Sequence record: OP870145.1
Strand: one strand, 5' to 3'
Origin: Escherichia phage vB_Eco_F26
DNA length: 64,000 bases
Shown here: one piece after another, positions 1-5,306 of the stretch
Layout: each line of letters begins with the position of its first letter
Numbering within the stretch: position 1 is the stretch's first letter
Notes under the pieces: generated by a model
Seen by the model: the letters and a program-made list of their open reading frames with translations, nothing else
Told to the model about the DNA's origin: nothing
The model's database searches: none
Translations under genes and position numbers: made by a program

Positions 1-2178
1 TTAGGCCGCAAGGGCCTTCATAGTTTTAGCGATTTGGGAAACTTCATCATCGCTCAAAGAGTTGCGATAACCGATGAAGTCGGAAACAATACGGAATTTC
101 TTGGTAAACTCAGCAACCATTTTATCACTATTTTTTGAAGCATTACGTGATAATTCATCAAAAAGATTAGTTACCGTCCAGATGTCATGACCGATGGTAT
201 CTTTTCCACCATTAAAATATACACCCTGTAATGAACTAACCATATTAGCGAGTCGTGTATATTCTTCAGAAACTTCATCTACACTGAAGTACTTCATCAT
301 AAAATCTAGTTCAGGATACTTAATAATTTTATCAATATATCGTTTAGCTGAACTTGAATAACCTACATACTTATCATAATCTACATCATCAAAAGCATCT
401 ACATATAAATCACGCAAAGCTTCAAAAATACATTGGCACTGACCGAGTTCTTTTACCTTTTTCTGTAAAAGCGGACGAATAACATAAAATTCATTAATGC
501 CAATAAGATTAGCCATACGAATCAAAATATTCATAGATGGATGACAAAGCGATGTAGTACCATCCATAGAGAAAATATCAGAACGATGCATGTATGCTAC
601 ATAACCAGTAATTTCATCTGCTTCTGATGTGAGCGTAAACAATTCCTCTTTTTCCCAGCGCCCGTCTTTAATTTCAAACTTAAATGCAGTAGCAGTTTTA
701 GGACGAGGAGCTGTACTTTTTACTGCCTTTGGAATATAACTTTTAACTAAAGCTTCAATTTCTGACAGATAATGAATGTTAACTTCATCACTTTCAAACA
801 TTGCGATAATATCAGGAAGCAAATCAATCTGCGATTCTACTTCCGGATTAATAAACAGAAGACGCTCATTGTGATGAATATTCAAAGTGTTATTAAATTC
901 ACTATCATCTAACGCGCGTGCTAATCCACGGACAATATTAACACGATTTTTAGTATTATCAATAACAATATTAATTTTTGTCGTATTAATACCAAACAGA
1001 CGATAGCTTGACGCAACGGCTGAAGTTTCATGGCTTTGCTTAATGCGTTTCAGTCGAGGGTCAAGATTTACTTCATACACAACCCCTGCATTGCATAACT
1101 TACTGTCAGGTTCAAACATGCTCTGCATCTTCTTATATGACAGATTTTTAGTCGTAAATTTGACTGAATTACTAATCATATAATCCCGAGCAGAATATCC
1201 CATCTTCATCAATTCACGGTATGTATGACGAGGAGATGTAGATTCTTTAAATCGTTTTACATCTTCATTGAATGCCTTCTCACTAAGCTCTTTAACACGC
1301 TCAATAATATTTTTACGAGTACGATCGTCCAGTGAAAGAGCCTCACGTGATGGAGCAATATCAAGTGAACCCATTGGAAACTTAATGTAATTCACTTCAT
1401 TGCGGATGCTTAACCAGTTACGGTCTCTAATAACACCATCAATAGGATAAACAATACCACCATAGATAGCATACAATCCGCCACGATCTGGCCAGTATCT
1501 TTCTGGATTTACACCGTAATAGTCATCAAAATCCGGAAAATAATCAATTTCGCGGTCAAGACCATTAATGATAGCCAAATCTTTGAATGGTCGCATGATA
1601 TAAGAAACTTCATAAGCAAAGTTTCTAAAGTCTTTTTCTTCAACCGGAACTACGATTTCAATACCAGTTTTATCGTCTGGACCCATTTCTTTTACGAATG
1701 TAGGTTTAATCTGCGGACCGTCACCATCCATGTAAGCTACATAACCACGAATTTCGCCTTTATGATATGAAGTAATACTAAATGTATCAGTATAACTAAA
1801 CGGAGATTTAGAACCTAAACCAAATCCACCAATGAAATCGTTAGATTCAGCCTTAGATGAACTGAAGTATGAATTATACAACCCAGGAGAATTATCATCA
1901 CCCTGAATATCAAAATCGCTCATACCCGGACCAAAATCTCGACAAACAAATCGCGAATCTAATCGTCCTGGAACTTGTATGATAAATTTTTCAGGATTTC
2001 CATTGAGAGCATGTGCATCAATCATGTTGGTAATCAATTCACGGACTACTGCGCGAATCTTGTTTGTGTACAAATCAGATGATAGAATTTTAAATACTTT
2101 AGGAGATGCTGTGATGCTAAATGCTTTTGATTTAGAACCATTACCAAGAATTGTTTCTTTTTCAGTGGTGATAATCAT
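1..2178 (-). CDS. rIIA: rIIA protein (725 aa), GHKL-type ATPase fold, membrane-associated; stop codon is at window start
   Basis: Full-length 725-aa ORF; N-terminal ExxxNxxDA motif ([11 protein letters not shown]) typical of GHKL ATPases; length and position match T4 rIIA. Confidence 0.85.
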
Positions 2179-2188
2179 AATTTCCTCA

Positions 2189-2392
2189 TTAATTCATATT
2201 GCGTTTAATAACTTCAGCAACTTCTAGTAGTTCATCTTTAGTTGCGGTGTCGGATTGAATTTTATCTCTAATATCCTTAAAGCGGTTTTTAAACTCTTCA
2301 GCTTCTCCCATATCGAAAAAGCGTTGAATGATTCTATATTCTCGATGAACTGCTTTATCAAAAAGTTCTAAATTTACTTTATATGATTTCAT
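2189..2392 (-). CDS. small hypothetical protein (67 aa), rIIA.1-like
   Basis: ORF immediately upstream of rIIA, same strand, tight spacing. Confidence 0.5.
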
Positions 2393-2417
2393 TCCAATAT
2401 CCTCATTTGCCCAATTA

Positions 2418-2447
2418 ATTATACCACATCCTTGTGGTAAAGTAAAC
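2418..2447 (-). promoter_or_regulatory. T4-type early promoter (GTTTAC -35, 18-bp spacer, TATAAT -10)
   Basis: Minus-strand reading GTTTAC-N18-TATAAT; overlaps 3' end of gene 60; same 32-bp sequence repeated at 51435-51466. Confidence 0.55.
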
Positions 2448-2979
2448 TACTGGCTCATCCATTCTTTACGAAGGTCAGCATTATCTCCCATGAGCATTTC
2501 AAAAAGCTCTTTCCAATTCTCAGGAAGTTTAACAACATCATATACTGGATTTTGAATCATCTCACGATATTCAGATTTTTCCAAAGAGCCAAGTCCTTTA
2601 ATATAACGGATGCTATGTTTAGGTAGAGCATCTTTGGCACTCTCATATTCAGCGACTGTATAAAACCATTCTTGTTTTTTACCGACCTGGGCGATGATTA
2701 CAGGAGTTTTGACAAAGCGAATACGTCCTTGCTCAAACAATTCTGGCCAATTACTAAAAAATCCTAGCAGAGAAGGATAAATAGAACCTAATCCAATAAT
2801 CTCTTAATTATGAGGTATTTCTATGGATAGCCCGAAGGCTATCCATCGTGATCTGCGTCTGTCATAATAGCGACATTCGCATAGTTCATTGAAGAGGATT
2901 TAATAGAACGACGAACATTGTTCTGCAATTTATATTTTTTCATATCAACGCTAGAAGAATCAATTTTTACAAATTTCAT
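2447..2979 (-). CDS. 60: DNA topoisomerase II large subunit C-terminal fragment gp60 (160 aa), translated in two segments (2979..2842 and 2791..2447) across a 50-nt untranslated gap
   Basis: Segment 1 encodes MKFVKIDSSSVDMKKYKLQNNVRRSIKSSSMNYANVAIMTDADHDG (46 aa) ending GGA-TAG; segment 2 resumes LGSIYPSLLGFFSNWPELFEQGRIRF...; 46+114=160 aa, matching recalled T4 gp60. Confidence 0.9.
2792..2841 (-). other. 50-nt translational bypass (coding gap) element with take-off hairpin
   Basis: mRNA reads GAU GGA UAG CCUUCGGGCUAUCC...UUGGA UUA; take-off GGA (2842-2844) followed by UAG stop inside an 8-bp stem with UUCG loop (2826-2845); landing GGA at 2792-2794; reading frame restored at UUA 2789-2791. 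Confidence 0.85.
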
Positions 2980-3778
2980 TATACACCTCATAGAACTTTT
3001 CATCAGGAATCCAACCGCGTTTAAATTCATTAAATGCTCGGCCGAATAATTTTGAATTCACAGTTATATTATTAACTGATTTCCATTTAGCAACTCCTGT
3101 TCGTTTATAATGATCGGGGTCATATTTCGTGACGTACCATTCATATAAATTTGGTATTAATTTTACAGCCTCTGGATTTGTCGCTGATTTATTATACCAT
3201 GGTTTCGCTTTTTCAAGTTCAGCTGCTTTTGCAGTAGCAGCAACAGTATTTCCAATACCAACTAATTTTTCAGCTTTAATGCGTGGATCATTAACATGAA
3301 GACGAAAAACTTCGCCCTTTTCATTTTTAAAGCATGTCATGCCTTTAATTCCAGGAAGCTTAACACCTTTATTAACACCGCACCATTCCTTTGGGTTAAA
3401 TGATCCTTTAATTAATAAGGCGCATTTACCCGATTTAATACTTCTCATTAAAACTTTATCTTTCATAAAGTTTTTTGACCATTCAGATACTGCTCTTTGA
3501 TGGTAAATTCTAGCAATTTCATATAATTTACTAGAACGTAAATATTTTTCAGTGTTTAACATTCTATTCATCGCATATGCCATTTCACGATTACGATGAA
3601 TTTTATATAGTAGAAAATGTGCTAAAAAGTGTTCACGAAAAGTCAGTTTCACCAAATTTTCTTTATCATCAGAACCTCCCATTGATCTTGGAAGGATATG
3701 ATGAATTTCACCCTTAAATTTAGAAACGCGGGTTTTACCCCGCACTATTAAGTCATTATAGATTTTTTCGTAATTCAC
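2960..3778 (-). mobile_element. mobA: HNH homing endonuclease gene (272 aa), mobA-like, inserted between gene 39 and gene 60
   Basis: HNH motif EIHHILPRSMGGSDDKENLVKLTFREHFLAHF; overlaps start of gene 60 and end of gene 39. Confidence 0.75.
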
Positions 3779-5306
3779 CTACTGTTATCCATTTACCATT
3801 AATCTGTACTTCATCATTTTCATTTACGATAATTGTATCGCCATTTAGTTCGAAAGTAAACCACTCGCCATCTTCTTTTTCTTCAAATGCCTTTTCACCG
3901 AGAACTAATCCAGTGATTGCGCAAATATCAAACAGTTCTTTGTTTTTAAGCATATCAGCATATGACATACCCCAGCTATTAAGAACTTTACCGCGCAATG
4001 GATAACCACCATGAAATTCTTTATCACGAACATCAATAAGATATCCGATAGCGGAATCACCCTCAGTCAAGAAAAGAGTAGTGTCAGCATCTTTACCACA
4101 AAGATTCGCTTTAATATGTTTATGAACCTTAGCTTTAGAAGCCTTTTTAGCTGCTTTAGTTTCTGCTGCTTTTTCTGCCGCCAATTTACGAGCCAAGGCA
4201 GCTTCAATGATTGGCATTAAAATTGCTTCATTATTCAAAATAGCACGTGAAATCTTTTTAGCATCAAGCTGAATATGACTACGGATTTCACCAAATGGAG
4301 AAGTCAAACGCTCTTTAGTTTGAGAATCAAATCGCATGTTTTTCATATCACGAACAAACATAACGATAGTCAAACATTCTTTAACACGTGCTTTAGTTAC
4401 ATCAATTTTGAATTTACGTTTGATTTGTGGAATAAGGTCTTCACAAATATCATCCATAACGCAGTCAATGTGATGGCCACCATTCTTAGTATGAATGTTA
4501 TTGACGTATGTTAATTGACGAAAACCATCAGGTGAACGACCAACCGCAATAGAACAGTTTTCTTGTTCTTGAACGATAGCATGTTCATCATATTGGCGTG
4601 CATATTTCTTGAAATTACCCTGAACCTTTTTACCATTAAAGGTAAATTGAATATCAGGATAAACTACTGCAAGTGTCTGGAGACGATCTAATGTAATGTC
4701 AAGATAAACTTGGGACAGCTCATTAGTTTCAAATGACATAAAATCAGGAATGAAAGTAACACGAGTTCCTTTCCATTTTCCTGGAATAGTTTCCCATGAT
4801 TTATTTTCCATGCCGTTTGAACAACGAACTACAATATTATTTTGACCATCGCCAGTTTCACCGACAAACATCACAGAAAAAATGTTTGTCAAACTAGAAC
4901 CAACACCATTCATACCGCCAGTGACGCGTTCTTTATCATCACCGAAGTTACCACCTGCTTTTGGAATAGTCCATGCAGCAACAGGACCAGGAATTTCTTC
5001 ACCGGTAGGTGTTTTAACCATCGCCTGTGGAATACCGCGACCGTTATCTTCAACTGTTACTTGATTGTTTTTAATAGTAACATTAATTTTATTTGCGAAT
5101 TTAAACTTAGTACGAATACCTTCATCTACTGAGTTATCGATAATTTCATCAATAAGCTTAACAAGACCAGGTACATACTGAACACTTTCCCATTTACCAA
5201 ACAGAAAGCGCTCATGCATTTCATTAGCAGAAGAGCCAATGTACATGCCGCTACGCTTTTTGATATGTTCAATATCGCTCAGAATTTTAATTTCATTCTT
5301 AATCAT
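3756..5306 (-). CDS. 39: DNA topoisomerase II large subunit, ATPase + Toprim part (gp39, about 516 aa from ATG at 5306)
   Basis: GyrB-like GHKL N-box (DEIIDNSVDEGI) and Toprim EGDSA motif (FLTEGDSA); ORF track starts at GTG 5309, ATG at 5306. Confidence 0.9.
   Translation of the reverse strand: MIKNEIKILSDIEHIKKRSGMYIGSSANEMHERFLFGKWESVQYVPGLVKLIDEIIDNSVDEGIRTKFKFANKINVTIKNNQVTVEDNGRGIPQAMVKTPTGEEIPGPVAAWTIPKAGGNFGDDKERVTGGMNGVGSSLTNIFSVMFVGETGDGQNNIVVRCSNGMENKSWETIPGKWKGTRVTFIPDFMSFETNELSQVYLDITLDRLQTLAVVYPDIQFTFNGKKVQGNFKKYARQYDEHAIVQEQENCSIAVGRSPDGFRQLTYVNNIHTKNGGHHIDCVMDDICEDLIPQIKRKFKIDVTKARVKECLTIVMFVRDMKNMRFDSQTKERLTSPFGEIRSHIQLDAKKISRAILNNEAILMPIIEAALARKLAAEKAAETKAAKKASKAKVHKHIKANLCGKDADTTLFLTEGDSAIGYLIDVRDKEFHGGYPLRGKVLNSWGMSYADMLKNKELFDICAITGLVLGEKAFEEKEDGEWFTFELNGDTIIVNENDEVQINGKWITVGELRKNL

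Follow-up and report, generated by a model that had tools for sequence, protein, structure and literature searches.

The hop that ribosomes make within gene 60 of phage T4 is the founding example of programmed translational bypassing, and its workings have been studied in depth by genetics, kinetics and cryo-EM. In the T4 record the gene is annotated as join(2458..2802, 2853..2990), accompanied by a misc_feature, 'non-coding translational bypass region', in the mRNA. The T4 gap is transcribed into mRNA and is not translated, and the product that spans the junction has been identified experimentally (PMC3014915), while purified in vitro translation yields the 160-aa product from unspliced mRNA (PMC11194080). 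According to published T4 work, about half of the ribosomes finish the hop; the remainder drop off, releasing a 46-aa product.

Related systems have been described both near to T4 and far from it. The Clade-1 MobA cassettes of Tequatrovirus phages (vB_EcoM_G50, LH2, 215Ecol030PP, HY01; 10.1101/2022.08.31.505936) are, as published, about 1.1 kb long, replace about 64–66 nt and reach 9 nt beyond the landing codon, all of which is like the locus described here. Much farther away, the mitochondrial 'byp' elements of Magnusiomyces capitatus, compared here by description only, are 27–55-nt inserts that are likewise skipped between matched codons, and there too a hard-to-decode codon follows take-off. 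Unlike gene 60, however, they belong to an unrelated genetic system with many inserts per genome, and they have neither a homing-endonuclease cassette nor a nascent peptide of the gene 60 type.

Here we describe gene 60 of Escherichia phage vB_Eco_F26 (OP870145.1) within a window of 64,000 nucleotides, the window being the whole stretch of DNA that was analysed. The feature is already known: it is the thoroughly characterised, classic bypass of T4 gene 60, carried on a mobA cassette. The first-pass annotation had itself called it the classic hop and described biology, rightly so, as the locus is collinear with the annotated T4 gene 60. Since the T4 hop has already been dissected, finding it again adds no new principle. 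What the window offers is a clear case of the hop riding on an intact mobA cassette, one far better conserved than the surrounding host genome, together with one natural point variant of the take-off helix. There is also value for annotation: many deposited relatives split or mislabel the gene, and recognising the hop gives the correct 160-aa product.

Gene 60 and its bypass signals

The gene occupies 2447–2979, as the first-pass annotation had it, with its ATG at 2979 and its stop at 2447; the strand, which had been left unstated, is the minus strand. Its product is gp60, 160 aa long, which forms the C-terminal part of the large, GyrB-like topoisomerase II subunit. The parts of the gene and the signals in and around it are as follows.

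2447–2979, minus strand: gene 60, comprising ORF1, the 50-nt coding gap, ORF2 and the stop (from the sequence and the T4 annotation)
2986–2989, minus strand: GAGG, a putative Shine–Dalgarno sequence at −10 to −7 counted from the gene 60 ATG, in the context …AUGAGGUGUAUAAUG…
2979–2977, minus strand: ATG start of gene 60
2842–2979, minus strand: ORF1, codons 1–46, translated as MKFVKIDSSSVDMKKYKLQNNVRRSIKSSSMNYANVAIMTDADHDG
2890–2940, minus strand: codons 14–30, the nascent-peptide bypass signal KKYKLQNNVRRSIKSSS (coordinates computed, role taken from the literature)
2854–2881, minus strand: predicted 5′ stem-loop (GCGAAUGUCGCUAUUAUGACAGACGC), ending 9 nt upstream of the take-off codon
2823–2846, minus strand: extended take-off stem-loop, AUGGAUAGCC-UUCG-GGCUAUCCAU, of 10 bp, all Watson–Crick in the window
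2842–2844, minus strand: take-off codon GGA (Gly46)
2839–2841, minus strand: UAG stop, directly 3′ of the take-off GGA
2792–2841, minus strand: 50-nt untranslated coding gap, including the landing GGA; annotated in T4 as the bypass region
2825, minus strand: natural variant at gap nucleotide 17, C here and U in T4 by sequence comparison
2801–2803, minus strand: mini Shine–Dalgarno GAG in an AU-rich context, 6 nt 5′ of the landing codon (role taken from the literature)
2792–2794, minus strand: landing codon GGA
2791–2789, minus strand: resume codon UUA, the first codon of ORF2
2447–2791, minus strand: ORF2, 114 codons plus the stop (2449–2447)
2761–2778, minus strand: candidate 3′ stem-loop, AUCCU-UCUCUGCU-AGGAU, beginning 13–14 nt after the landing codon (a prediction, with weak energies)

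Codon 46 is GGA (2844–2842) and UAG follows it (2841–2839), as had been noted at first pass, and the matching GGA reported 47 nt downstream is found at 2794–2792. The interval between the two GGA codons is exactly 47 nt, and the gap (UAGCCUUCGGGCUAUCCAUAGAAAUACCUCAUAAUUAAGAGAUUAUUGGA) therefore measures 50 nt; matched take-off and landing codons, readable by one tRNA, thereby flank a non-coding stretch. A tRNA scan of the 64-kb window found no tRNA genes, and hence no phage tRNA-Gly is encoded in these 64 kb. ORF2, which translates as LGSIYPS…KEWMSQ*, lies in the +2 (−1) frame relative to ORF1, and across the junction the joined product reads …TDADHDG-LGSIYPSLLGFFSNWPELFEQGR. Judging from its sequence, the GAGG upstream of the ATG probably serves as the Shine–Dalgarno sequence of gene 60.

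The domain content of the joined protein spans both frames, with the Toprim DxDxDG motif in ORF1 and the remainder of the domain in ORF2. Against Pfam the joined protein scores 33.3 bits for TOPRIM_C (cut-off 29; residues 74–159), whereas DNA_gyraseB_C, covering the tail, is a weak match of 20.5 bits, below the cut-off of 29.8. To call the downstream frame a GyrB C-terminal domain, as was done at first pass, was thus approximately right, with only the first of these two families above its cut-off. The joined gp60 corresponds to the distal portion of Toprim, plus the tail, in the large, GyrB-like topoisomerase II subunit.

The positions of the signals in the window agree with the descriptions in Wills et al. 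(2024) and Manning & Atkins (2022). The nascent peptide that had been noticed upstream of the gap corresponds to residues 14–30, whose part in bypassing has been documented (10.1101/2024.12.09.627546, Fig. 1 legend; PMC5462505); the residues concerned (KKYK…, Y16 and others) are all present, ORF1 being 100% identical to residues 1–46 of T4 gp60. The 5′ stem-loop lies where it has been placed in the literature (Wills et al., 2024), and the 38-nt segment containing it (gene index 90–127) has a predicted energy of −10.1 kcal/mol, the same as in T4.

At the take-off site, GGAUAGCCUUCGGGCUAUCC (2844–2825) forms a perfect 8-bp stem closed by a UUCG loop, with the take-off codon in its 5′ arm, and the helix reaches 10 bp once the flanking AU/UA pairs are counted. 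The 20-nt hairpin is predicted at −13.2 kcal/mol (z = −5.2), a stability equalled by 0/200 shuffles, and the 20-mer occurs once in the window against 0 occurrences expected by chance. The 8-bp UUCG stem of the first-pass annotation is thus perfectly Watson–Crick in the window; in T4, with which it had been equated, the eighth pair is G·U. A GGG at 2833–2831 lies within the same hairpin. Beyond the landing site, the candidate 3′ stem-loop, a putative barrier to forward slippage, is predicted as a weak 5-bp hairpin that differs from T4 at one base (2765), where a synonymous C→A change adds one U-A pair. As a possible terminator the UUCG hairpin was rejected, there being no T-run 3′ of it, and the terminator scan of the window did not flag it.

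The element apparently has no Rfam model: at gathering threshold no family and no intron was found in all 64 kb, and a permissive scan of 2400–3100 returned noise only, at E ≥ 4. When viral contigs from IMG/VR were scanned for exact matches to the pattern GATGGATAGCCTTCGGGCTATCNATAG, none turned up, and the related phage records used below were taken from the GenBank phage collection. No datum contradicts the bypass reading.

For the hop itself, its efficiency of about 50% and the role of each signal in this phage, we infer from the published T4 experiments. By that analogy, ribosomes would translate the 46 codons of ORF1, and the KKYK…SSS nascent peptide inside the exit tunnel would slow the ribosome and lock the peptidyl transferase centre in an inactive state. 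The slowly decoded UAG, together with the UUCG-capped mini-hairpin in the A site, would stall the ribosome at Gly46 (GGA), and the hairpin over the UAG would keep out RF1 and near-cognate tRNAs. Peptidyl-tRNA-Gly would leave the take-off GGA yet remain in the P site, with EF-G-driven pseudotranslocation beginning the slide that carries the ribosome over the 50 nt; the anti-Shine–Dalgarno would pair with the GAG 6 nt before the landing site, and the tRNA would then re-pair with the second GGA. UUA would be the first codon decoded after landing, and the result a single 160-aa gp60.

Identity with T4 and the mobA cassette

Over the 1.4 kb around gene 60 the window is 99.3% identical to T4 and to T4T, and gene 60 itself aligns with its T4 counterpart without gaps at 533/533 positions, with 98.7% nucleotide identity, a window coordinate being the T4 coordinate minus 11. 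The T4 hop (NC_000866; T4T HM137666) is matched in the gene, its genome position (with the 11-nt offset), ORF1 and the 160-aa product, as well as in GGA/UAG/GGA, the 50-nt gap, the UUCG hairpin, the GAG mini Shine–Dalgarno and the 5′ stem-loop. ORF1 shows 0 differences from T4, G50 and GRNsp7. The comparison of the gap with T4 gene 60 that had been proposed as a check returned the same 50 nt with 1 nt different, at 2825, where the C of the window, in place of U at gap nucleotide 17, makes the take-off helix fully Watson–Crick. ORF2 differs from T4 at six positions, all at third codon positions and all synonymous, one of them within the putative 3′ stem-loop; compared with five relatives it shows 6–12 nucleotide differences and 0 amino-acid changes. 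At the protein level the hop-joined 160 aa are 100% identical to T4 gp60 in PDB 8yo3 (chain C residues 517–676) and in related topoisomerase II entries, and the first 46 aa are the nascent chain in PDB 5np6 (chain C 1–46), the cryo-EM structure of a ribosome stalled at the take-off site.

Among close relatives, the bypass signals of the Clade-1 MobA cassettes are no different from those of the window, and the 75 nt around the gap are identical to those of G50, LH2 and 215Ecol030PP, the C variant included; the Clade-1 Tequatrovirus cassettes depart from the window at a few synonymous sites in ORF2 and the flanks. The U→C change in the gap is the only local novelty of this copy. GRNsp7, a closely related Salmonella phage, has a 51-nt gap with one U more, possibly a homopolymer sequencing error. 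An extra U would be harmless only if the gap is not decoded, and it thus supports the gap being unread.

The genomic setting of the gene is that of a mobile cassette, with features as follows.

2783–3890, minus strand: mobile cassette of 1108 nt (about 1.1 kb), its boundaries approximate and drawn against T2 and RB32
2960–3778, minus strand: mobA, an intact ORF for a 272-aa HNH homing endonuclease; mobA is annotated in T4T with equal length and position
3756–5306, minus strand: gene 39, the N-terminal ATPase/transducer part of the topoisomerase II large subunit (HATPase_c, DNA_gyraseB)

The cassette is made up of the gp39 C-terminal extension, mobA, the N-terminal part of gp60, the coding gap and another 9 nt, so that it ends 9 nt past the landing codon, and, when set against T2 and RB32 without gaps, it stands in place of 66 nt of the unbroken gene. 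An endonuclease ORF between genes 39 and 60, C- and N-terminal extensions (CTE/NTE) of the flanking genes and replacement of a host segment, the marks of a MobA cassette, are all present. The endonuclease ORF scores 20.1 bits against Pfam HNH, just under the cut-off of 21.4, and it overlaps its neighbours out of frame, the start of gene 60 by 20 nt and the end of gene 39 by 23 nt. Here and in T4T it is intact; in the T4 reference record mobA is annotated as defective. From the cassette come both the C-terminal extension of gene 39 and all of ORF1: a unique N-terminal 30 aa, for which the alignment found no counterpart in T2, followed by a 16-aa replacement of the host Toprim segment that ends in DADHDG. 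The replacement (HomR) segment is identical to T2 at 35/48 positions. The mobA homing-endonuclease cassette would have split an ancestral gene for the topoisomerase II large subunit in two, giving genes 39 and 60, with the gap and the ORF1 N-terminus as its cargo.

The cassette is 99.55% identical to that of T4T, compared with 95.4% for rIIA and 96.2% for the host part of gene 39, and right beside the cassette the identity to T4T is 97–98%. Its distribution is patchy: 41 of 497 related phage records carry it, and elsewhere similarity starts at gene position 198. A patchy distribution and a cassette better conserved than its surroundings are what homing, with co-conversion of the flanks, is expected to leave behind, and the hop thus marks the cassette rather than the genome lineage. 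The identity of 99.55% to T4 reflects the history of the cassette and not that of the genome. The genome belongs to a Tequatrovirus that is not T4, the best database records being about 95–96% identical over 25 kb. The first-pass statement that the hop confirms the phage lineage therefore needs qualifying; the hop, moreover, rides on a mobile cassette that is present in several myovirus genera.

Probably one protein from two reading frames

In T2 and RB32 the large topoisomerase subunit is a single uninterrupted ORF of 605 aa, the sequence of which runs straight through the junction predicted here (…NIAIMTDADHDGLGSIYPSLLGFF…; IAIMTDADHDGLGSIYPSLLGFF; DADHDGLGSIYPS; that is, …DADHDG/LGSIYPS…). 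The first 9 nt past the landing codon are UUAGGUUCU in the window and CUAGGAAGC in T2; 5/9 positions differ, and both encode LGS. The joined product aligns colinearly with the homologues that lack an interruption, and from the landing codon on, purifying selection acts on ORF2. The earlier claim that gene 60 is a single protein if 50 nt are skipped is borne out by this colinearity with T2 and RB32 and by the 100% identity of the joined product to T4 gp60.

Several other ways of accounting for the two frames can be weighed against these data. Were there no hop, ORF1 could end at its UAG as a 46-aa polypeptide and ORF2 could initiate independently in or after the gap. The ORF2 frame is indeed open from the GAG on, with AUU codons and a UUG at 2740 (the start of a listed 97-aa ORF), and a 46-aa product is what the half or so of T4 ribosomes that drop off are published to yield. 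This frame, however, has no AUG or GUG from its last stop (gene index 174) to the UUG at index 240, and a product started at that UUG would be missing LGSIYPSLLGFFSNWPE, which directly adjoins DADHDG in homologues with a single ORF. The codons right after the landing GGA change only synonymously, the matching of take-off and landing codons is conserved across clades, which independent initiation would not need, and the junction product has been identified experimentally in T4; we consider two separate polypeptides very improbable. A conventional programmed −1/+2 frameshift, or readthrough of the stop codon, fits the +2 (−1) frame of ORF2, and the stable hairpin 3′ of the would-be shift site superficially resembles a frameshift stimulator. 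Yet the gap holds stops in all three frames (gene index 139 and 157 in frame 0, 170 in frame 1 and 174 in frame 2), so that neither a single frameshift nor readthrough can connect ORF1 to ORF2; no slippery heptamer precedes the UAG, the protein contains no gap-encoded residues, and the probability left to this explanation is negligible.

The 50 nt might instead be lost ahead of translation, whether as a very small intron, through editing of the RNA or through rearrangement of the DNA. Self-splicing group I introns do occur in other T-even phage genes, and the insert travels with a homing endonuclease, as many introns do. Against this, a group I or group II intron would need far more than 50 nt, and no intron fold was recovered in the Rfam scans, at gathering threshold or among the noise (E ≥ 4) in 2400–3100. 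In T4, moreover, the sequence is reported in review to be transcribed into mRNA and left untranslated (PMC3014915), and unspliced mRNA yields the 160-aa product in vitro (PMC11194080), both contrary to removal before translation, which has hardly any chance of being right. Nor do we give any real weight to the view that gene 60 is a functionless pseudogene, or that its interruption is an assembly or sequencing error, despite the many automated annotations that present it as two short 'topoisomerase' CDSs, with a 'frameshift' note or as a 'hypothetical protein'. The same interruption recurs in 41 independent records, and another 32, from five other host genera, have it in diverged form; synonymous-only change in ORF2, covariation of the hairpin (see below) and the placing of the essential Toprim DxDxDG motif in ORF1, with the remaining domain in ORF2, all speak against loss of function.

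With the anatomy of the locus, its identity with T4, its colinearity with uninterrupted homologues, the synonymous-only divergence of ORF2 and the covariation of the take-off helix all read from the sequence, we regard a T4-type programmed translational bypass of gene 60 in this phage as nearly certain.

Divergent relatives and the take-off helix

A tblastn search with the 46-aa ORF1 as query found 73 phage records, 41 of them T4-like (at least 95% identity) and 32 below 60% identity. These 32 belong to phages of Salmonella (S16-like), Proteus, Acinetobacter, Aeromonas and Shewanella, and six such distant records were read for bypass architecture. The cassettes of Salmonella S16, Proteus Pm5461, Acinetobacter KARL-1 and Stupor, Shewanella Thanatos-1 and the Aeromonas phage share with the window the same insertion point at the Toprim motif; unlike the window, they have an N-terminal extension peptide less than 60% identical, other codons and, in some cases, GCAA or UUAG loops. 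Their take-off and landing codons are matched or wobble-matched (GGU/GGC, GGG/GGA, GAU/GAC, GGU/GGU, GAC/GAC), and in all six phages take-off is followed by a stop or by the rare codon AGG. A tetraloop hairpin with the take-off codon inside it occurs in five of the six, the Aeromonas phage, with its 17-nt gap, being without one, and GAG or GGG stands 6–7 nt before the landing codon in five of the six, Thanatos-1 having none. Among the phages examined, gap lengths range from 17 to 52 nt and fall into every mod-3 class.

The take-off hairpins of seven phages from six clades were aligned by hand, anchored on the tetraloop; in this small sample 97.1% of the cells are paired, and compensatory changes occur in 5/10 pairs. 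The covariation score was reached by 0/500 shuffles, and pairing drops to 21–40% when the register is slid. At the third base of the take-off codon, the pair is variously A-U, U-A and G-C. This covariation reproduces the conclusions of Manning & Atkins.

The variant base, at 2825, is the pairing partner of the take-off codon's first G, so that U→C converts G·U, the sole such pair of the 10-bp helix, into G-C. Predicted energies go from −11.5 (T4) to −13.2 kcal/mol (window) for the 20-nt hairpin and from −17.5 to −19.8 kcal/mol in a 62-nt context, a gain for the helix of about 1.7–2.3 kcal/mol. Such a slight strengthening of the lower stem is plausibly neutral or of mild benefit. It is conceivable, though we think it rather doubtful, that U→C at 2825 together with C→A at 2765 tunes the efficiency or the temperature dependence of the hop in this lineage; if so, the pair that the take-off codon makes with its first base would be a natural 'rheostat'. 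The cross-clade alignment has G-C at this pair in four sequences and G·U in two, so that both states are natural, and the U→C change is also present in 4 of the 41 T4-like records, namely G50 (two records), LH2 and 215Ecol030PP.

Cassette identity and the state of mobA

The mobile cassette of vB_Eco_F26, about 1.1 kb in length, takes in the C-terminal extension of gp39, mobA, the N-terminal part of gp60 and the gene 60 coding gap that ribosomes are predicted to bypass:

2783-3890, minus strand: mobA cassette
2960-3778, minus strand: mobA, an intact HNH homing-endonuclease ORF of 272 aa

A comparison of window positions 880-5300 with phage T4T (HM137666) gave 99.55% identity across the cassette, with 98.2% in the adjoining host part of gene 60, 97.4% in the rIIA.1 region, 96.2% in the host part of gene 39 and 95.4% in rIIA. 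This step in identity looks like a recent acquisition of the cassette accompanied by co-conversion of its flanks. The mobA gene is likewise intact in T4T, whereas in the T4 reference record it is annotated as defective, together with an ORF 60.1; with its reading frame intact, the vB_Eco_F26 cassette may still be capable of homing.

The counterpart of window 2380-3800 in Escherichia phage CJY920 (PQ349265.1, 53220-55554) is 2335 nt long as against 1421 nt, and the alignment falls into two pieces, which suggests an additional insertion of roughly 0.9 kb inside or beside the mobA cassette of that phage.

Variation and annotation of gene 60 among relatives

Salmonella phage GRNsp7 (ON720975.1, locus about 1219-1269) has a coding gap of 51 nt instead of 50, owing to an additional U within GAGAUUUAUUGGA, and the distance from the mini Shine-Dalgarno GAG to the landing codon is therefore 7 nt. 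This is either a naturally occurring indel that the bypass tolerates or a homopolymer sequencing error. Within gene 60 of vB_Eco_F26 itself, nt 215 (window 2765, minus strand) differs from T4: the codon is CUA in place of CUC, a synonymous substitution. It falls in the putative 3' stem-loop, a candidate forward slippage barrier, where a U-A pair would be gained (AUCCU/AGGAU here versus AUCC/GGAU in T4).

The gene is frequently mis-annotated in relatives. In vB_EcoM_G50 (NC_054917.1) and many other matching records it is entered in one of three ways: as a 46-aa 'DNA topoisomerase II' CDS followed by a second, truncated CDS noted as 'frameshift', as 'hypothetical protein', or with the gap left free of any feature.

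Other signals in the window

Across window 1-64000 no Rfam family reached its gathering threshold, and neither tRNA genes nor a group I intron were detected in these 64 kb. The hexamer CTTCGG, which comprises the UUCG tetraloop core and the C-G pair that closes it, was counted 31 times over both strands of the whole window (11.8 ± 3.3 expected; 0 of 100 shuffles reached 31), an excess in keeping with T4-type genomes being known to be rich in UUCG-capped hairpins. Immediately 3' of the stop codon of gene 60 and 5' of rIIA.1, at 2418-2446 on the minus strand, there is a strong match to a sigma-70-like promoter (10/12; TTTACT-17-TATAAT with an extended -10 TG).
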